The notes under the pieces are model-generated. The model had not been told where the DNA came from. It saw only the letters and a list, made by a program, of their open reading frames with translations, and did not search any database. DNA of 64,000 nt from a virus: the IMG/VR virus record IMGVR_UViG_3300029911_000010, positions 1 through 64,000 of that record. One strand, 5' to 3'. Of this stretch, positions 55,152 to 64,000 are shown piece after piece. A program made the position numbers and the translations under genes. The number at the start of each line of letters is the position of its first letter. Positions within the stretch are counted from its first letter, which is position 1.

Positions 55152-57878
55152 TCAGTCTCCAGATTCTTCCATATCTGGGTCTTGTATTTCGTCGAGTCGT
55201 GGCTCGATTGTCTTCTCCTTTAGGAATAACACTATATCTGCGAGGCTTTCAAAGGCATTTCGCAGCGAATCTTCCATCTCCGGCAAAGAATTTTTGCCAT
55301 ACCGCTCCTTGAAATCATCTTGATGCCAGTAAAAAAGGAAGAGCAACCGGCCCAGCTTGTCGACGGCTTTCATCAGGTCAGGCAAGTGGCGGTCCACCAG
55401 CGAGTCCTGCCGCACCGACTTGAGCATGCCGGAGATCATCGAAGTGTCGAACACCTCTTTCTGCCCTTCCTGGCCGGCTTGCTGGGCAGTCTGCACCGCC
55501 TTCTGGTCGGGCATCAGGAATGGATCATAGATCCGAGGATCAGTCTGCGAGCTGTCCAACCCCGACACCGGCACATGCTCGCTCTGGGGATAGATGGCGT
55601 TGACTGAATTGTAGCCGACCTGTTCACTACCGTACTCGGGAGCCGGCATGACTGGGGCGTAGGGGCCACCGGACTGCAGATCGCCGCTGGGATAGTAGCC
55701 TGCGGTCTTTTCTCGCGGATAGCTCTTGGCGTATACGACGCGGTACTGCACCGGCGATCCGCTCATGCCGTTGCTGTGAACCTGGGCTTGCTTGAGCATC
55801 GCGGCTGCTTCGCTTTCGCCGAGCCCGTGATCGCGAATCAGACAGAACAGACCATGCCGCCACGGCATGCGCTCGCAGCCTCGCTTGATGGTCTGAATGG
55901 ACACTTCGCTGTGATCGCCCCACATCTTCATGGACGCGGTCTTGGTGGTGAACAGCAGTTGAATGTCACCGATGTCGCCGGGGACGATCGGCTTGGGGTC
56001 TGAGCCGTCTGAGTCCCAACCAACCGGGCCGCCGATACTGCTCTTGCTGGGACCGTCGCCGTCGTCTTTCTTGGGCTTGGGCGGATCTTTGAGCTTCATG
56101 AACTTGAAAGTATCGGGCACGTGCAACGTGCCGGCAGCCGCCCGCAACTTGGTGCCGGGGCGGTCGTTGATCACTAGCAAAGCATCGTAGTTGCTGACAT
56201 AGCCGCCGTCGCCGGAATAGGACGAAGGCTCAGTCACCTTGGGCAAACCGCTGGCACGCCCGGCTTTCCAGTCCTCGTAGCCCTTGAAGTCGACCTTGTA
56301 ACGCTTGTCCTCGTAAACCTTGCTGACAACAAACGGGACAGTGCCCTCTCCGGCCTGGTTGATCGCCAGGTAGGTGCCGCCCTTGGACAACGTCTCGGAG
56401 TTGCCCAGACCTTTGAACCATTCGCGGAAATCGTTCTCCGACTCGATTGTTTTGGTCCACAACGACGTGCGGTGACCGTTAAGCCACGACTTCTCGCCGT
56501 CGCCCAATCGCACCACCGTACAAAAGTTCTTTTGCCCGTCGTTGGCACTGGGGGCCTGGACCACCAGCATGCGGCCGAATTCGCCGGGCTTCTCCAGCAC
56601 TTCGTAGATGCCGGTCTCGTGCGGATTTGTCAGTTCCGTTCGCACTTGAGTGTTGTACGCATGGCTGATTTCGTCGCCCTTGCGCTCGTCCTTGACCAGA
56701 TAGCCGTGGTGCAGGAGCTTTTCTTTATCCTTCTCGGGAAGTTCCTTGTTGACCGTGAGGCTGACATCCGGGTCAGTGAGAATCTTGACCTTGGGCTTCT
56801 TGTCATCTTCGGGCGGCTGGGCTTCCTTAAGCAGCGAAAAATCCAGTTCACTTCGCGGCTTGTTCGGCGCAATGCGGGTTTCCCACTCGGCTCCTTTGAT
56901 CAGGCAGTTGGCGGCTTCCTCGGCTGCCTGCTTGATTCGCAGGCCGACGCGATGGAAGAAATCGCTGCCATAGAACTTATCGAAGGCGACCTTGATGCCG
57001 GGGTAGCGCTGGGAGATGTTGTAGGCTCCTTCCAGCAGGCTGACATCGGTCGCCAGGAAGTCTTCCAGCGACAGTGGGACGTCGGCTAAGGCCGCCTTGA
57101 CGGGGCTGGCGGGCAGCTTGCTGACGTCAACTTTGCGATCGGCCGGGGCGTTGGGCCATAGGAAGTTGGCTTGCTTGGTGGCAATGGCCGCCAGCAACGG
57201 CAGCGCCGGCACCGCCCAACCGGCCACGTCGCGATTGCCGACGCGGATGTAATCCGGCAGCGGTGATTCCGCAGACCGACCTTCGCGGGCGGCAGCAGCT
57301 TTGGCCTGTAGTCGCTCCAGAGCACTGCCGTATTTGTTGTGCGGCGGCGGATAGCTGAGACGTTCGATGTTGGGGGCAATGCCGCCCAGCTGCCAGGTAT
57401 CCTTGGCCGAGCCTTCGCCCAGGACGTGCGGCTTGCGGCTGAGGATGTAGTTGACCCAGTTTTCCTTCATGGGCACGAAGGAGTCCTGATTCTTGATATA
57501 CAAAAGCTCGTGGCCCTTGAGATCACCGTTGAGGAAGAAGATCGGGGCGTACAGCCACTGCTTGCCGATCTTGAAGCCGAACACGCCGACAGCCTTGGTG
57601 TTGTCGTCGTTGCGGTCGACCAGCTGGAAGCCGACGATGTAGTCGATCAGGCGGGGAGCCTTATCCTTGAGATAGGCATACCCAAGTGAAGAGAAGGATT
57701 GCTCAAAGCCCTGCTCCTGCTCGCCGCCGATGCTCGCCCATTTGATGCCGGGACCCTTGGCCAGTCCGCGAATGTGCATGACCAGCTGCAGCGGTGTCGC
57801 GTCGCTGGTGTAAAATTGACCGGCATCCGTAGCGTGCTTGATGAACGTAATGTGCTTCCGTGCAGTTGTAATTGCCAT
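55152..57878 (-). CDS. Large K-x-A-containing head-associated protein
   Basis: 908 aa; hairpin RBS CTTTTC-ACGGAC-GGAAAG; KxA motifs in linkers. Confidence 0.7.
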   Translation of the reverse strand: MAITTARKHITFIKHATDAGQFYTSDATPLQLVMHIRGLAKGPGIKWASIGGEQEQGFEQSFSSLGYAYLKDKAPRLIDYIVGFQLVDRNDDNTKAVGVFGFKIGKQWLYAPIFFLNGDLKGHELLYIKNQDSFVPMKENWVNYILSRKPHVLGEGSAKDTWQLGGIAPNIERLSYPPPHNKYGSALERLQAKAAAAREGRSAESPLPDYIRVGNRDVAGWAVPALPLLAAIATKQANFLWPNAPADRKVDVSKLPASPVKAALADVPLSLEDFLATDVSLLEGAYNISQRYPGIKVAFDKFYGSDFFHRVGLRIKQAAEEAANCLIKGAEWETRIAPNKPRSELDFSLLKEAQPPEDDKKPKVKILTDPDVSLTVNKELPEKDKEKLLHHGYLVKDERKGDEISHAYNTQVRTELTNPHETGIYEVLEKPGEFGRMLVVQAPSANDGQKNFCTVVRLGDGEKSWLNGHRTSLWTKTIESENDFREWFKGLGNSETLSKGGTYLAINQAGEGTVPFVVSKVYEDKRYKVDFKGYEDWKAGRASGLPKVTEPSSYSGDGGYVSNYDALLVINDRPGTKLRAAAGTLHVPDTFKFMKLKDPPKPKKDDGDGPSKSSIGGPVGWDSDGSDPKPIVPGDIGDIQLLFTTKTASMKMWGDHSEVSIQTIKRGCERMPWRHGLFCLIRDHGLGESEAAAMLKQAQVHSNGMSGSPVQYRVVYAKSYPREKTAGYYPSGDLQSGGPYAPVMPAPEYGSEQVGYNSVNAIYPQSEHVPVSGLDSSQTDPRIYDPFLMPDQKAVQTAQQAGQEGQKEVFDTSMISGMLKSVRQDSLVDRHLPDLMKAVDKLGRLLFLFYWHQDDFKERYGKNSLPEMEDSLRNAFESLADIVLFLKEKTIEPRLDEIQDPDMEESGD

Positions 57879-57947: not shown

Positions 57948-60900
57948 TCACGGGTTGTTACTGGCGGCTGGGTTCGGACGAACGACTCGCCCAATTTGCT
58001 GCCCCATCGAGTTTTGAGCTGTCCAATCGATCCAGGCCCCTGGTGTTTTAGCTGCCTGCTCTTCCAACTTGGCGACGCGAAATCGGTCAAAATCCCACAA
58101 TGTCTTGCGGGCAGCCTGTTGCCCGGCTCCGTGATCCGCCGATGCGAACATGTCTCGCGGGTCGGTTCCCCCGGACCATCCGCCGGCCGTGTCTTGTTGT
58201 ATGCGATCAGTGACGCGACGGGCTCCGCCGAATAACGCTTCGCCTAGACCGCCTCCGATAGTCTTGACGCCGGTTGTTCCAGTCGGCGTAACATTGGCCA
58301 GCGCTTTTACACCGGCAGGGATTTCAACGACTGGATTAAACGAATGACGCGTAGGAGTCATTCGCTTACTCTCGTCGTTGATCTGCATACCGGTGCCGAC
58401 TGCGTAGTTCACTCCCATGCGCAAAGGCATACCTTCGATCGACCCGTCCCAGTTGCTGACACCGGTATAGTCTGCTCCCCGATTCAACGCTACGCGGGCG
58501 TCTGTGCCGGCATCGCCGAAAACACGAGCAGGGATGAACGTCGTCGGCATGGCAGCTGTCATGCCAGTCATGCCCAAATTCATTCCATCACGCCAATTGA
58601 ACTTGCTTGGATCTTTCCACGTCTCGTCGCTGATAGGATCGATCAATGAACGATTGACCTCCTCGTTGGCCGCCACCGCCCCTTCGGTCGAATTTATCTG
58701 GTTGACACCTTCCATAACCCACGGAATATACGGACTTAACTTGTTCAATGCAGCACCGGTACGTGAAACGCCTCTGGCGAAAGGCGTCATCTTGGCAAAC
58801 TGTTCGACGTTTCTCGTAGCATTCCCTGTCCAGGCAAAACGACTCATCGGCATATATCCGCCGCTGGTGCCACGTGCCAGGTTGCTGCCTAACCGGTAAG
58901 TGTTGGCAGCTCCAGCCGCTGCCGGCGCTGCCATGCGATTCCATGCAACCAGACGAGCAGCGTCAACTGCGACAGGTGCCATCAATGTCATCCGACCGGC
59001 GTGCAACATTTGACTCGTGCGTTGATCGGATATACCGCGTTCACGCATCAGCTGATCGTATTTGGTAGACTTAGTCTGTTTCGTCAAATCCAGTAACTGC
59101 TCGGCCTGGTTTGTCGTCTGTGTAAGCTGATCCCACAGTTGTTTGCGTGTTTCGTAGTCAGCGCCGCTGGACTGGTTGTACTGCTGAATCAACTGATTTC
59201 GCTGTGCAACAGCGGCATTAAGCTGATTGTCCATGGCGACGATCTGAGGATCGGCTTTCATCTGCTGAGTCACCTCAGCCATAATTTTGAGAGTGTCCGG
59301 CGACGGCTGCGACTCTTCGGCGGCAGGAGTCGGAGTTGACGGAGTCGTAGCTGCCGGAGCAGGCGGTCCCATGACCGGGGCCGCCGGCGTCGGGGCCGGA
59401 GCCGCCGGCGCTACCACCGCAGGCTGCGGGGCAGGAACTGCAGGGACTGGCGTCGCGGGCGGGGTCGGACTTGCAGGAGCAACTGATGTCGACAACGGAG
59501 GTAGCTGAGGCCGAGATGGCTGCTTTGCCAGACTGCCGAGCCAGCGCTCGGGATTGTCGAGGTGACCGTCTGTTTCACGTTGCTGTCCTCCGAATAGTCC
59601 TTTTGTCAGCGAACCCAGAGCGCTGTAGTCCAAATTGCCAAAGATCGCCGCCGGAGCCAGCGGTCCCAGTTTGTTGATCAGCGGGGCTTCCATGCCCAGC
59701 ATCTTGCCCCCCATCAGCGAATTAGGGCTGTAGCTGTCAAAGAAGTGTTGCGGCTTGTACGGCTCGGGCTTCGGCGCTGCAGAAGCTAGCGGCGATGCTG
59801 GAGCGGTCGGAGCCGTAGGAGCTGAGATCGATCCGCCAGCCGGCTTGCTGCCGTCCGTGGCAGATCCCCCGGAGCCGCCGCTTAACTCGGCGCTGACTTT
59901 GAGACCAGCCTCCGGCGTGTGAATCAAGCCCTGCCGCCCAAAGTCTACTGCCTTAGCCAGGCTGGGCACGAAGCTGGTGCCTTCTTCGTCGCTGACTGCG
60001 CCGCGATGGGCAGCGTCCAGCAACGAGCCCTTGAGACCCGATCCATACATACGGACCATCCAGTCCGGGTCTTGTGCCAGGTTAGCCATGCCCCGAACCA
60101 TCTCGGCCTTGAAAGGCGGTGGCTTGTCGTGAACCTTGACCTTCTTGACGCCGAACTCCGCCAGATCCTTCTGCACGGACGGGCGGATCTTGGTGCCGAT
60201 CGAGTAATGCAACACCGGCTTCTCAAGATACTTGTCGCGGGCCAGCGACGGCTCTACATCCTGAGCGTCTTTGCGGGGTTCGTAGATGTGCTCCAGCGTT
60301 GAGTACGGCACCATGTCGTCGGGAACGTATTCGCCCATCTCATCCGTCAGTCGAACGTGATTGATCAGTCCACGGCTCAGCAGCTCGACGTTGCGGCGGT
60401 GAGCCTTGATGCCGGCGTTGCTCATTGCGTCGCCAAACACCTTGGTGAAGTACCGCCGGCCTTCGCCAATGCCCTTGTGTTCTACCACCTTGGCGGGATT
60501 GGGCCAGCCCTCGGAGATCACGTCTCCGGCTTCCACCCGGTCACCGGGGTTGACAGTGAGGTTATGACCAGCCGCAACGTAGTGTCGCTCGCCGCCGATC
60601 CAGGCGTACTTGCCGCCGGCCGGAGCATCTTCGGATCGTCCCACTGGTCCGTCCACTTCACTGTGAGTGGCACCGCCCTTGAACACTTTAGGCACCTGGA
60701 TCATCTGACTGATGGTATCAAAGCCGCTGACCGCCTTGCCCTCGCCGGCCACGCCGCCGGTGTGCTTGGAACTGAGCTGTGCCTGACTCAAAGGCTCGCT
60801 GAACGCCTGGACGGCGGCCAAGCCCGGCAACTCGCCCCTACCCGGCAGCGTACCGTTCTCCCGCACGCCGGCATCGCGGGCATAGATGCCACCTTCGATG

Positions 60901-62915
60901 CTGCCGCCAATGATCGGGCTACGCACCAGGATGCGACCCAGACCACGGTGTTTGAGGTCGGCGGCGATCTTGGGCGTGATAACCGTGTTGCGTTTATACG
61001 GCCCCGTGTCCTTGGCCAGCAGCGCTCCTTCATTGTCCGGATCTTCGGTGTCGACCGGCATCCCCCGCATGTTATCGCGGTTGTCGCCTTGATTCTCGTG
61101 ATCATTGTCGACAACGACCAGCCGGTGAGCTACCTGGTTGAGCTGCTTAGAGTTCGAGACGATCGCCCCGTTGGCAAGGACGAACAGGTGGTCCGGGTGG
61201 TCTACTTCGATGTCGTAGGTTGGCACCACGCCGACGTACTCCTTCTCGACGTAGGAGTAAACAAAGTCGTCTTGACGGGTCTGCGGTTCCATCCCTTGCA
61301 GCAAATCAGCCAACACCTGGGCTTTGCGACCGGGCAGCGGGATGTATCGGGCGAACTTGAGGATCGAGTCGCGGTTGTTGATGACGATGCACCACCCGTC
61401 ATGGTTTCCCTTTTCGGCGACATCGACCCGTCGTATCGGACAGGAGTGGATGCCGAACCGTAGGGCCAATAGATCGCGGACGGTATAGACCATGATCTCT
61501 GACGTCATCGTGAGGATGATCGCGGGGACCGTCGAGTTATTGGTCAGCGTGACGCATCCGTCCGATTCATAGACGCCAGCGATCATCGCCGCGACGGATG
61601 GGTTGTCCCATCGGTACGCCTCGGACGGGACGCACTTCTCGTGGGCGAACTTGCCGAGCACACCCAGTTTCCGCAACCAAGTTCGCAGCCGGTTCCGCTG
61701 TCCGTGCCCGGTACGTTGCCGATCTAGGACGGCGTATTCGTAGGGGTGGCCTTCGCCTCGCCATCGCAGTTCCAAACCCAAGGTGATCAAGTAATCGCGT
61801 AGGTAGTCGACGAGGACCTGATCGGCGGTCGACAGGTAGACCGTACTGCCCGTCAGGCCACCGTCCCCTAGCAATAAGCCCAGGAGCAATGCGCGAGGCT
61901 CGGACGAGCCTATGGCCCGGTCGTAACCGTCGGCAAGTCCTTGGATCGGAGTCAGGCGGAATCCGAATCCGGCCCGGCTCAAGGGTAGCTGCGTCGGCGT
62001 GAGAATCGAGTTCTTGTCACCATGTGTCGTGCCGGCCCGACCACGCCGCATTGTCGCCAAGACCTTATGGTTTTCGGTTGCCTCGACTGTGATAAATGAG
62101 TCACGGGCCTTGCCAACGCGGAAGCGATAACGCCACACGTCCTTCGGCCCGTTGTCGAATGCGGCTGTGACCTTGACGGGGAACGTATGACCGGAGGCAT
62201 CGGCCCCCAAGACGAAATCACCTGATTTGAGCTGCTCAATGTTACAGGACTCGCCATACGGTAGTCGCACCTGTGTGCCACGGGCCAAACACAGAAAGCC
62301 CGCGTCCTGGGTGGCAAACTTGACGTCTATGACGCCCTTACGGGCACCGTAGGAGCCGGCCCAGTATTCCCAGGGGCGAAGACCCTCGCTGTAGCTCCGC
62401 ATGACCGGCACCGGAATGACGTTGCCCCGGTGATCGGCGTAAAGCATATCCGAGCCCAGGAGGCTGGACAGGTTCATCTTGTTGCCCCGGCCAGCGCCGG
62501 CCAGCTGGTGAGCCAGGGGATTGTCGTTGGCCTTGGCTTCGTTGAAGACGGCTTCCTGCTGCTCTTTCTGTCTGTCGCCGACCGTGCGGATCAACAACTG
62601 CTCACGCTTGTTATCGTCCAGCGTGTCGTCGTCTAGAATGCGATGGATCTTGGGTTCAATCTGATTGCGAAAGTCGGTTGATGCCTGGCTCTTGCGCAGA
62701 TGCCTGAGACCAAACGAAAAGCCTCCCGTATCCTGGGCCACCTGCCGGCCGATGTTGGCAATCTTGTGGGAGATATCGCGATAGCGGTCCGGGTACCGGC
62801 GGGCTACGTCGCCAAGAAGCTTGCCCAGCGATTTTTTATCCAAGGTGCGATCGTAGTCTCGCATGTCCTCGGGAAGGGCATCGTTGACCAGAAGTTGTCC
62901 CAGGGTCGTCTGCAC
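57948..62915 (-). CDS. Split multisubunit RNA polymerase beta' C-terminal subunit with intein and ~650-aa C-terminal extension
   Basis: TTLGQLLVN, GRGN, SYSEGL..EYW..YGARKG (F-loop/bridge helix), QAFSEPLSQAQLSSKHTGG (trigger loop), RRNVELL; no NADFDGD. Confidence 0.9.
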   Translation of the reverse strand: MQTTLGQLLVNDALPEDMRDYDRTLDKKSLGKLLGDVARRYPDRYRDISHKIANIGRQVAQDTGGFSFGLRHLRKSQASTDFRNQIEPKIHRILDDDTLDDNKREQLLIRTVGDRQKEQQEAVFNEAKANDNPLAHQLAGAGRGNKMNLSSLLGSDMLYADHRGNVIPVPVMRSYSEGLRPWEYWAGSYGARKGVIDVKFATQDAGFLCLARGTQVRLPYGESCNIEQLKSGDFVLGADASGHTFPVKVTAAFDNGPKDVWRYRFRVGKARDSFITVEATENHKVLATMRRGRAGTTHGDKNSILTPTQLPLSRAGFGFRLTPIQGLADGYDRAIGSSEPRALLLGLLLGDGGLTGSTVYLSTADQVLVDYLRDYLITLGLELRWRGEGHPYEYAVLDRQRTGHGQRNRLRTWLRKLGVLGKFAHEKCVPSEAYRWDNPSVAAMIAGVYESDGCVTLTNNSTVPAIILTMTSEIMVYTVRDLLALRFGIHSCPIRRVDVAEKGNHDGWCIVINNRDSILKFARYIPLPGRKAQVLADLLQGMEPQTRQDDFVYSYVEKEYVGVVPTYDIEVDHPDHLFVLANGAIVSNSKQLNQVAHRLVVVDNDHENQGDNRDNMRGMPVDTEDPDNEGALLAKDTGPYKRNTVITPKIAADLKHRGLGRILVRSPIIGGSIEGGIYARDAGVRENGTLPGRGELPGLAAVQAFSEPLSQAQLSSKHTGGVAGEGKAVSGFDTISQMIQVPKVFKGGATHSEVDGPVGRSEDAPAGGKYAWIGGERHYVAAGHNLTVNPGDRVEAGDVISEGWPNPAKVVEHKGIGEGRRYFTKVFGDAMSNAGIKAHRRNVELLSRGLINHVRLTDEMGEYVPDDMVPYSTLEHIYEPRKDAQDVEPSLARDKYLEKPVLHYSIGTKIRPSVQKDLAEFGVKKVKVHDKPPPFKAEMVRGMANLAQDPDWMVRMYGSGLKGSLLDAAHRGAVSDEEGTSFVPSLAKAVDFGRQGLIHTPEAGLKVSAELSGGSGGSATDGSKPAGGSISAPTAPTAPASPLASAAPKPEPYKPQHFFDSYSPNSLMGGKMLGMEAPLINKLGPLAPAAIFGNLDYSALGSLTKGLFGGQQRETDGHLDNPERWLGSLAKQPSRPQLPPLSTSVAPASPTPPATPVPAVPAPQPAVVAPAAPAPTPAAPVMGPPAPAATTPSTPTPAAEESQPSPDTLKIMAEVTQQMKADPQIVAMDNQLNAAVAQRNQLIQQYNQSSGADYETRKQLWDQLTQTTNQAEQLLDLTKQTKSTKYDQLMRERGISDQRTSQMLHAGRMTLMAPVAVDAARLVAWNRMAAPAAAGAANTYRLGSNLARGTSGGYMPMSRFAWTGNATRNVEQFAKMTPFARGVSRTGAALNKLSPYIPWVMEGVNQINSTEGAVAANEEVNRSLIDPISDETWKDPSKFNWRDGMNLGMTGMTAAMPTTFIPARVFGDAGTDARVALNRGADYTGVSNWDGSIEGMPLRMGVNYAVGTGMQINDESKRMTPTRHSFNPVVEIPAGVKALANVTPTGTTGVKTIGGGLGEALFGGARRVTDRIQQDTAGGWSGGTDPRDMFASADHGAGQQAARKTLWDFDRFRVAKLEEQAAKTPGAWIDWTAQNSMGQQIGRVVRPNPAASNNP
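61152..62291 (-). mobile_element. Intein (380 aa) with LAGLIDADG homing endonuclease
   Basis: CLARGTQV start, TENH block B, LLGLLLGDG and IAGVYESDG, YDIEVD..H.FVLANGAIVSN|S end. Confidence 0.92.
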
Positions 62916-63002: not shown

Positions 63003-63995
63003 TCATTTCTCGTCCATGTCATTGGACAAATCAGCCAACGGATCGTGCCGTTCAACCGCAACCGGCTCGGCGGATTCAGCTTTGGCGGCCGCCACCACCG
63101 GATCTTCGTCTGCCGCCGACTGCGTGGGCACCGTCTGCACCTGCACGGTTTCTTTCTTGCCCTTGGGCCGCTTGCCGCCCTTGCCGATCGGGCCGTGGGG
63201 CCTTTCGCCCTCCAAACCCATCGCGTTGTGGGCTGCCGTCACTACCGGGTCCAGTGACCGGCCCGTGCTGACCGGCACTGAGTCGTCTTCGGCCATCCCC
63301 TCACCGCCCTTGACGAAGGAGGAAAAGTCGCCCAGCTGCACTGCCGACGAATCGGGCTCTTCGACAATCGGGGGCGGCCGCACCTTGCCGAACATCTGCC
63401 GGGCCAGGTCGGCTCCGTCCTTAACCGCCGGCACCAGCTTGATGCGCTGGGCCTGCTCTTCGGTGGCCCGACTGCGAGCGATGCCCAAATCGATCGCCGC
63501 CTGAATGCGGCGCTCGCACTCAGGCGTGAACACTTCCACATAGATCGGATGCGTGCCGCCGTCTGCTAAGGCCGCGAAGATCGCGTCAGCGGCTGCCGTA
63601 ACGCCGCTCTTATCCTTCACGCGGATCGGCGTGACCACGTCACCAGCCCCGGCAGCCTGGTATACCTGTCCGGCAATACGAGGATCGCGACGGGAGTCGG
63701 CCGGCACCAAGGTGCCATCCCGCATGCGCTTGAGGGGTTCCATGGGAACGTCCACCGGACCTTTGGGCTGCCCCATCTGGCTACGGGCCGAGCCTCCCGA
63801 GCGGTAATACTGATCCGTGTTGGTATCGCCGGCCAGCTGCACCGGCGTTCGGGCAGTCTGCAACGGACCACCGGGTCGACCACGTCGGGTCATGGCGTTT
63901 CGGTTGTTGATTGCCGACGCTCCTCGGGGAGCGTAGTAGGCGGCATCCGCCGTCATGTTCGGATTGCGGGGTGCCCCCGAGTCGGCGACTTGCAC
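63003..63995 (-). CDS. Hypothetical protein with acidic/disordered C-terminus (5' end may lie outside the window)
   Basis: Long ORF, frame open to the window edge. Confidence 0.6.
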   Translation of the reverse strand: MQVADSGAPRNPNMTADAAYYAPRGASAINNRNAMTRRGRPGGPLQTARTPVQLAGDTNTDQYYRSGGSARSQMGQPKGPVDVPMEPLKRMRDGTLVPADSRRDPRIAGQVYQAAGAGDVVTPIRVKDKSGVTAAADAIFAALADGGTHPIYVEVFTPECERRIQAAIDLGIARSRATEEQAQRIKLVPAVKDGADLARQMFGKVRPPPIVEEPDSSAVQLGDFSSFVKGGEGMAEDDSVPVSTGRSLDPVVTAAHNAMGLEGERPHGPIGKGGKRPKGKKETVQVQTVPTQSAADEDPVVAAAKAESAEPVAVERHDPLADLSNDMDEK

Positions 63996-64000
63996 GACAG

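Follow-up and report, generated by a model that had tools for sequence, protein, structure and literature searches.

Here we describe a gene on the minus strand at positions 57948-62915 of a 64,000-nt stretch of viral DNA (hereafter the window), which is the first 64 kb of the 104,427-nt IMG/VR record IMGVR_UViG_3300029911_000010 (CheckV completeness 47%). We believe that the product of this gene is very probably the C-terminal half of the beta' subunit (beta'-C) of a phage-encoded, bacterial-type RNA polymerase (RNAP) and that it is made as a precursor; this judgement covers the best explanation as a whole, including the splicing of an intein, membership of a clade of phage enzymes with a divided beta', and packaging in the virion. 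The open reading frame (ORF) occurs as a single copy in the 104-kb record. The closest relatives that are near-complete have genomes of 208-235 kb, and the genome of the window's phage is estimated at ~220 kb. The gene and its parts are as follows, with residues numbered in amino acids (aa) of the precursor.

57948-62915, minus strand: whole ORF, the beta'-C precursor, 1655 aa with a GTG start, made up of N-extein, intein, C-extein and tail.
62292-62915, minus strand: N-extein, aa 1-208, opening with TTLG and closing with the first half of the bridge helix (GARKG...AGFL), approximately E. coli beta' 589-796.
61152-62291, minus strand: intein, aa 209-588 (380 aa), Pfam LAGLIDADG_3 at 6.5e-18; intein-free alleles exist.
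59901-61151, minus strand: C-extein, aa 589-1005, with the second half of the bridge helix, the former zinc site, the trigger loop and the C-terminal beta' fold.
60873-61100, minus strand: former Zn2 site, H606, G670, Y678 and D681 by alignment columns.
60762-60776, minus strand: trigger-loop tip, L714-S-S-K-H718, against bacterial M-R-T-F-H.
57948-59900, minus strand: C-terminal tail, aa 1006-1655 (650 aa); conservation falls off at aa 1005.

Identity and limits of the beta'-C gene

When the protein was compared with the PDB by phmmer, bacterial beta' chains were matched down to 3e-27 in two blocks, aa 1-209 and aa 643-880, query aa 132-209 pairing with residues 720-797 of the E. coli beta' chain, and Pfam RNA_pol_Rpb1_5 (PF04998) was matched at 5e-10. 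An earlier note on this DNA, made from the sequence alone, had described the protein as alignable to cellular RpoC by eye, and the PDB matches bear this out. The same note had stated that the bridge helix and the trigger-loop His are kept, and the alignment shows both: the bridge helix reads GARKGVIDVKFATQDAGFL / SKQLNQVAHRLVV, with GARKG at aa 190 and the helix resuming as SKQLNQVAHRLVV after the intein, while H718 stands in the column of the bacterial trigger-loop His. The AlphaFold model of aa 589-1005 is confident, with a predicted local distance difference test score of 87 and a predicted template-modelling (TM) score of 0.86, and in a Foldseek search bacterial beta' chains and one modelled RpoC superposed on the whole of it (E 5e-17, query-normalised TM 0.59-0.71).

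The N-terminus of the protein reads V/M-QTTLGQLL. The same motif lies at, or a few residues from, the start in nearly all of the ~120 homologues listed, such that the start at TTLG (TTVGR of RpoC) recognised in the earlier note is an instance of a family trait, the TTxGQLL start. Cyanobacterial rpoC2 chains, from their residue 7-12, pair with query residue 18-22, which puts the phage break ~10 residues ahead of the rpoC2 start, near but before the rpoC1/rpoC2 break as had been proposed. As with rpoC1/rpoC2 of cyanobacteria and plastids, beta' is divided after the catalytic double-psi barrel; in contrast to them, the break comes earlier, the phage N-half stops ~60 residues short of the end of the gamma subunit, and that half is fused to beta.

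The gene had been placed at 59900-62915 in the earlier note. The start end of this interval is correct, whereas its other boundary is not that of the gene, since the ORF continues to 57948 and specifies 1655 rather than ~1005 aa. Position 59900 is, however, the exact point where family conservation stops (aa 1005): identity per 25-residue window is 50-77% across the family up to that residue and then collapses. The protein shares Rpb1 domain 5, the GARKG bridge helix, the trigger-loop His and the overall fold with the C-terminal half of bacterial RpoC, but differs from it in being a separate polypeptide, in lacking the Zn2 Cys tetrad and the lineage-specific inserts, in reading LSSK for MRTF, and in possessing a bridge-helix intein and a 650-aa orphan tail.

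An intein in the bridge helix

The intein is inserted between the equivalents of E. coli beta' L796 and T797 and cuts the bridge helix in two. It opens with Cys1 (C209), contains a TENH block B and two LAGLIDADG motifs, and finishes in ...IVSN at N588, with S589 as the +1 Ser; Cys1, a TxxH block B, a C-terminal Asn and a +1 nucleophile, the features of class-1 inteins, are all present. Homologues free of the intein read GFL/SKQLNQ over the junction (a slash marks the insertion point). The insert is absent in at least 85 of 119 homologues checked, 29 of the 119 being unscorable, and at least eight homologues have an intein in the bridge-helix region, some at the window's site (GFL/C) and some 8 residues upstream (TKF/C). 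This sporadic, site-specific pattern is as expected of a homing intein, and by these sequences the bridge helix appears to be an intein hot spot in the family. As the insert splits the bridge helix, it would have to splice out for the helix to be rebuilt.

Other inserts of this kind occur in the same genome. Two more inteins are found in the partner RNAP genes (genome 65106-71585), one after GDKM in beta (CFDTE...WSQN/S) and one after LNPLGVISR (CYDDQ...IAGN/T), and the ribonucleotide reductase gene at genome 75479-78883 also has a LAGLIDADG insert.

Partner subunits

The earlier note had supposed that the other subunits lie outside the window and had pointed to NADFDGD- and beta-like genes as what to look for. 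Both are present at genome 65106-71585, directly upstream of beta'-C on the same contig and strand.

Genome 68163-71585, same strand: 1140-aa ORF, the front of beta (N-terminal ~800 aa), with Rpb2 domains 2, 3 and 6 and an intein after GDKM.
Genome 65106-68120, same strand: 1004-aa ORF, the rest of beta and the N-terminal half of beta' (beta'-N), with the C-terminal end of Rpb2_6, Rpb1_2 and the second intein.

The 1004-aa ORF runs unbroken from beta into beta' residues ~166-561, including FNADFDGD. In more than 80 loci, practically all of those found in IMG/VR, the order is the same, with the N-terminal part of beta, its C-terminal part and beta'-N contiguous, followed by a gap of at least 1 kb, beta'-C and then a gene which in the window encodes 908 aa. 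The two beta ORFs of the window's phage are in one frame and are parted by a single TGA within the conserved GRxGNKG motif. The sequence around this TGA (genome 68121-68165, 4.1 kb past the window end) is SGRYG-TGA-GDKGVVSSIIP, and in-frame conservation extends as far as the ATG of the following ORF. An alternative genetic code was considered and rejected; table 11 holds because TGA ends 31 of 82 ORFs and is found inside none of the long ones. A group I or group II intron between beta'-N and beta'-C was likewise rejected, Rfam giving nothing at E<=1 save a chance match to a small RNA.

Family and phylogeny

An identical protein is present on a 183-kb contig, and when aa 590-1010 were searched against 5.8 billion proteins, 589 homologues were returned at E<=1e-5, the best of them 60-70% identical and on contigs of up to ~250 kb. 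A profile scan of IMG/VR found 92 contigs that carry the gene; the profile was required, as a scan of IMG/VR with the single protein gave no close relatives, and megablast of 24 kb against phage records gave zero matches. The family is thus frequent in metagenomes, yet it is essentially unstudied. A second scan, for which bacterial beta'-N was the seed, widened the sample to IMG/VR phage RNAPs with 25-38% identity to that of the window. Of the 75 loci in this larger set, 67 have beta, beta'-N and beta'-C together in a single open frame of ~2020-2300 aa. These single-chain forms have the same compact bacterial-type core and fall on the phage side of the trees, but differ from the split forms in their single frame, in keeping the zinc-binding Cys and in an MRTF/MKTF-type trigger loop.

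Trees were built from the beta'-C module by IQ-TREE quick search with SH-like approximate likelihood ratio test (SH-aLRT) support. They are unrooted, contain neither an archaeal outgroup nor phiKZ/AR9 sequences, have long branches, and draw on a bacterial sample that is limited and pattern-biased. In a 38-row tree a branch longer than 2 changes per site (SH-aLRT 100) separates all 12 bacteria from all phage sequences; the bacteria are mostly Bacillota, with one each of Actinomycetota-type (Nanopelagicales), Alphaproteobacteria, Bacteroidota-type (Sediminibacterium) and Planctomycetota-type (Gemmataceae). In a 53-row tree the 13 bacteria again stand alone (SH-aLRT 100), and the split forms, namely the window family, a divergent locus (L238), Gp216 of Salmonella phage Arash and the protein of Vibrio phage D181, group together (SH-aLRT 98), with 19 of the 20 single-chain forms outside. 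The remaining single-chain form, L187 (IMGVR_UViG_3300033068_002150), is placed beside the bacterial branch and away from the other 19, which may reflect a long-branch effect or a separate lineage. The gene belongs to a large phage-only radiation that includes the single-chain beta-beta' forms, Arash and the Vibrio phages, and the grouping is compatible with a single origin of the split.

These results bear on two statements of the earlier note. It had allowed that the gene might have no partner subunits, or might nest shallowly within a host clade as a decaying fragment; what was found is partners next door, bacteria set apart by a long branch, and hundreds of phage homologues, and a shallowly nested host fragment is therefore rejected. 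It had also described an independently captured multisubunit phage RNAP. That the gene is a separate beta'-C of a multisubunit phage enzyme stands, whereas independent capture is not demonstrated by unrooted trees. No phiKZ-type protein was matched at E<=1e-5, which indicates distance from the phiKZ group but does not by itself indicate a separate capture.

Some family members come from GTDB genome contigs. These loci (L090-L098), on contigs of up to 211 kb, are binned in metagenome-assembled genomes (MAGs) labelled Gemmataceae, Nanopelagicales, Clostridia, Aquaspirillum, Planctomycetia, Alphaproteobacteria and Sediminibacterium. We rejected host inference from these labels, as the family's contigs fall in MAGs of at least seven unrelated taxa and are probably binning artefacts. 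One 'Aquaspirillum' MAG (G003) holds three different phage-type beta'-C genes (L174, L175 and L180) in open frames of 638-645 aa, and an Rpb1_5 search detected no cellular rpoC in it.

Loss of the zinc site and change of the trigger loop

Four alignment columns are Cys in 13 of 13 bacteria, and in these columns the window reads H606, G670, Y678 and D681; the conserved core of its beta'-C contains no Cys at all. The loss of all four zinc-binding Cys claimed in the earlier note is thereby confirmed. By simple offset from S589 = T797 the E. coli equivalents are C814, C888, C895 and C898, with H606 falling on position 814, which we take to agree with the numbering of the E. coli zinc ligands. The trigger loop is SEPLSQAQLSSKHTGG, against bacterial GEPGTQLTMRTFHTGG, with L714-S715 at the Met-Arg pair (M932/R933). 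The replacement of MRTF by LSSK, also reported earlier, is seen in full as L-S-S-K-H against bacterial M-R-T-F-H.

The Cys tetrad is kept in all 13 bacteria, in 20 of 20 single-chain phage forms, and in Arash and the Vibrio phages. It is also kept in the seven most basal split loci (41-49% identity to the window), five of which read CCCC and two of which have a first position other than Cys. In the other 84 of 91 loci, whose similarity to the window is higher or comparable, all four Cys positions are gone together, nearly always as x-G-Y-D. Judged from this distribution, zinc loss is a derived, fixed character of a large sub-clade, the site having been lost once inside the split phage clade, and it is no feature of the capture. 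The trigger-loop tip with Lys before His and no Arg (x-x-K-H; L/I-S-S/A-K-H) is present in every split member, including Arash, and the single-chain forms keep a loop of M-R/K-x-F-H type; the LSSK-type loop thus marks the entire split clade, cultured phage included.

The absence of four zinc-binding Cys and of the trigger-loop Met and Arg could suggest that the gene is what is left of a host rpoC, in decay or devoid of catalytic activity, in which these residues were lost under relaxed selection. However, given that the core is 60-70% identical among hundreds of homologues and has sharp domain borders, that the replacement residues are conserved in their turn (x-G-Y-D in 84 loci, L/I-S-S/A-K-H throughout), that the predicted fold is intact according to AlphaFold and Foldseek, and that the gene is nested in no sampled bacterial group, we regard such a remnant as extremely improbable. 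A zinc-free state that is derived and fixed across a sub-clade does not look like decay, and trees that set the gene apart from all sampled bacteria do not look like a recent host fragment. We therefore keep to a phage-encoded beta'-C subunit.

The beta' zinc site is considered important for RNAP assembly, and the trigger-loop Met and Arg for catalysis. Both elements are conserved in all of the 13 bacteria sampled. Here a large natural family has discarded the entire zinc site in a single step and rewired its trigger loop, with the remainder of the protein strongly conserved, which makes it ready material for asking what both elements serve.

Comparison with known phage RNA polymerases

The nearest cultured counterparts are Salmonella phage Arash (OQ632216; Gp206 is beta/beta'-N and Gp216 is beta'-C; PMC10585845) and Vibrio phages D69, D148 and D181. 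In these phages beta' is split alike and beta'-C starts at the same motif. The window's phage shares the Arash-type traits of a beta'-C that is a separate gene from TTxG and of a beta fused to beta'-N upstream, and the two sets have in common their grouping in the tree (SH-aLRT 98), the Lys before the trigger-loop His and the position of the genes in a structural block. They differ in that the Arash and Vibrio proteins are only 25-29% identical to the window's and keep the four zinc-binding Cys, in that their beta'-C is ~606-610 aa with neither tail nor intein, and in genome size (~180-187 kb against an estimated ~220 kb).

RNAPs of the phiKZ/AR9 type come in two sets, lack a sigma factor and have beta in two or three pieces (Sokolova et al. 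2020, PMC7598289). Like the enzyme described here they are phage-encoded and have a beta' split after the barrel; they lack alpha and omega, neither of which was found in the 47%-complete record of the window's phage, and in phiKZ/AR9 one set is packaged in the virion (PMC7598289). In contrast, the family of the window's phage has one set, sigma in relatives and beta fused to beta'-N, and its sequence is far nearer to bacteria.

It could also be argued that the gene merely represents the mReC lineage already published (Weinheimer & Aylward 2020, PMC7481178) and brings nothing new. That study described 97 contigs of uncultured large phages with bacterial-like beta and beta' that are alignable to COG0085/0086, have NADxDGD and form a clade apart from cells, and the window's RNAP, with its NADFDGD and strong beta/beta' matches, has the same sequence hallmarks. 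However, the split of beta', the beta-beta' fusion, inteins and zinc are unmentioned for mReC phages in PMC7481178, as are virions, and its example RNAPs are separate proteins, a beta of ~1000 aa and a beta' of ~900 aa. Furthermore, a search of the 104-kb record for PF07068, the Gp23-type capsid marker of mReC, gave nothing at E<=1. The comparison is one with the published description of mReC. A major capsid protein was detected in only 8 of the 97 mReC contigs (PMC7481178). The large terminase subunit (PF03237) has no match in the 104-kb record, which is only 47% complete. On balance we think it unlikely that mReC membership is the whole story. The general phenomenon of beta/beta' genes in phages is already covered by Weinheimer & Aylward 2020 (PMC7481178), but this architecture is not, and a term search of a 2026 jumbo-phage review found neither Arash nor this RNAP family in it. 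What is added here is the zinc loss within the split clade, the clade-wide change of the trigger loop, the grouping of the split forms, the intein hot spot and the orphan tail.

Sigma factor, probable virion packaging and a proposed model

Each of five relatives that are 93-100% complete has one beta'-C gene, and in three of the five Sigma70_r2 scores above the cut-off. In the closest complete relative, L263 (IMGVR_UViG_3300020202_000001, 124048-124242), whose genome is 224 kb long and bears terminal repeats, a 256-aa protein of sigma-70 type is encoded that has no counterpart in the half-genome of the window's phage. Due to the single RNAP set, the sigma gene in three of five relatives and the absence of alpha from the phage's own record (the relatives were not searched for alpha), we believe that the enzyme probably works as a sigma-directed beta-beta' core.

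In Arash virions examined by mass spectrometry Gp206 was the most-detected protein and Gp216 was among the top five, and a sigma factor and a helicase were also detected (PMC10585845). The Arash RNAP homologues are flanked by portal and capsid genes, and in the window's phage a weak major-head match lies 12 kb downstream of the beta'-C gene on the same strand. Based on the virion proteomics of Arash and on the position of the gene in a head-gene block, we propose that the capsid probably carries the enzyme and that it enters together with the DNA so as to initiate transcription.

An alternative is that the gene encodes a functional subunit made only after infection for middle or late genes, like the non-virion RNAP of phiKZ, and not carried in the virion. 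Sigma in the relatives fits an ordinary intracellular holoenzyme, the direct virion evidence is that of Arash, and the authors of the Arash study point out that abundant enzymes can co-purify with particles (PMC10585845). On the other hand, complete relatives have a single RNAP gene set, the RNAP genes stand within the head-gene block both in the window's phage and in Arash, and both Arash subunits are among the most abundant proteins of purified particles (PMC10585845). An enzyme confined to the infected cell is in our view a rather unlikely alternative, and we continue to favour delivery with the virion.

Our model is as follows. The window's phage belongs to a clade whose members all have beta' divided at TTxG; those in culture are Salmonella phage Arash and Vibrio phages D69, D148 and D181. 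The sub-branch that includes the window swapped all four zinc-binding Cys for x-G-Y-D with the predicted fold unchanged. First, the precursor would be translated and the LAGLIDADG intein would splice out, restoring the bridge helix. The mature core (aa 1-208 and 589-1005) would then assemble with the beta/beta'-N protein encoded 2.2 kb upstream, which would supply the NADFDGD Mg site and the beta lysines. This core, without alpha and omega, would recognise promoters through a phage sigma factor. Finally, the packaged enzyme would enter with the DNA and begin transcription.

Several points weigh against this model. The trigger loop lacks the Arg and the Met that bacterial enzymes use in catalysis, and activity could therefore be altered. 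The penultimate residue of the intein is Ser, which replaces the usual His. The in-frame TGA within a conserved motif of the upstream beta frame means that synthesis of the partner needs read-through or a ribosomal hop, or that the record has an assembly error. The 104-kb record, only 47% complete, yielded no alpha, no omega and no convincing sigma gene. Packaging is argued from one cultured and distant relative, Arash (25-29% identity), to which its authors' caution about co-purification applies. Likewise, the splicing, expression and activity of this phage's enzyme are inferred from its sequence.

Were the enzyme to work in this way, it would be compact, with two polypeptides, no alpha found in the record and sigma in most of the complete relatives, and it may travel in the virion. 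If so, the known routes to phage independence from host transcription would broaden.

The C-terminal tail

The tail consists of Gly/Ser and Pro/Ala linkers, a Gln-rich helical stretch and a Gly/Ala/Met-rich region. Residues 1006-1655 have zero Pfam matches and no match in 89 related loci; neither a shorter standalone homologue nor a paralogue in the genome was found, and the ESM Atlas returned sub-threshold viral hypotheticals only. Tails of more than 100 aa occur in 19 of the 84 zinc-free loci and are 291-836 aa long, all but two of these loci being at least 59% identical to the window. The tail is thus a fast-evolving orphan add-on confined to the closest relatives. Our best guess is that it is a capsid-targeting or ejection segment, possibly cleaved. 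Some tails of relatives (P0027, P0048, P0036 and P0026) contain acylphosphatase-like, P-loop kinase (AAA_18/AAA_33) or DUF5661 domains, which recall the multi-domain 'polyvalent' proteins injected by phages.

Taken jointly, these characters allow a more speculative interpretation, which we put forward tentatively and with more doubt than belief: that, as the zinc-free sub-clade would show, the universally conserved zinc site is dispensable for the folding and function of a bacterial-type beta', that the trigger loop of the split clade, with Arg lost and Lys beside the His, is a distinct catalytic solution, and that the tail is a capsid-targeting or ejection module. If true, this would be a sigma-dependent, virion-delivered RNA polymerase of cellular type.

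Neighbouring genes

Two further genes flank beta'-C in the window.

63003-64000, minus strand: 339-aa ORF that extends to 64022, beyond the window, the last of three small ORFs between beta'-N and beta'-C.
55152-57878, minus strand: downstream gene, 908 aa, no assigned function, syntenic with beta'-C by tblastn.

The three small ORFs that separate beta'-N from beta'-C encode 258, 104 and 339 aa. The first two are conserved in the nearest relatives only, and the third has a homologue solely in the closest relative, L075, among the related loci searched. We considered and rejected the 339-aa ORF as a part of beta': the frame is shared by coincidence, and two TGAs and an 87-nt spacer of noncoding appearance lie between. 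PHROG annotation of 19 neighbouring genes yielded almost nothing. The 908-aa downstream gene has neither a Pfam nor a PHROG match; its tblastn matches extend to 81 of 89 related loci, with up to 54% identity, and its product is a candidate for a further RNAP-associated or virion protein.

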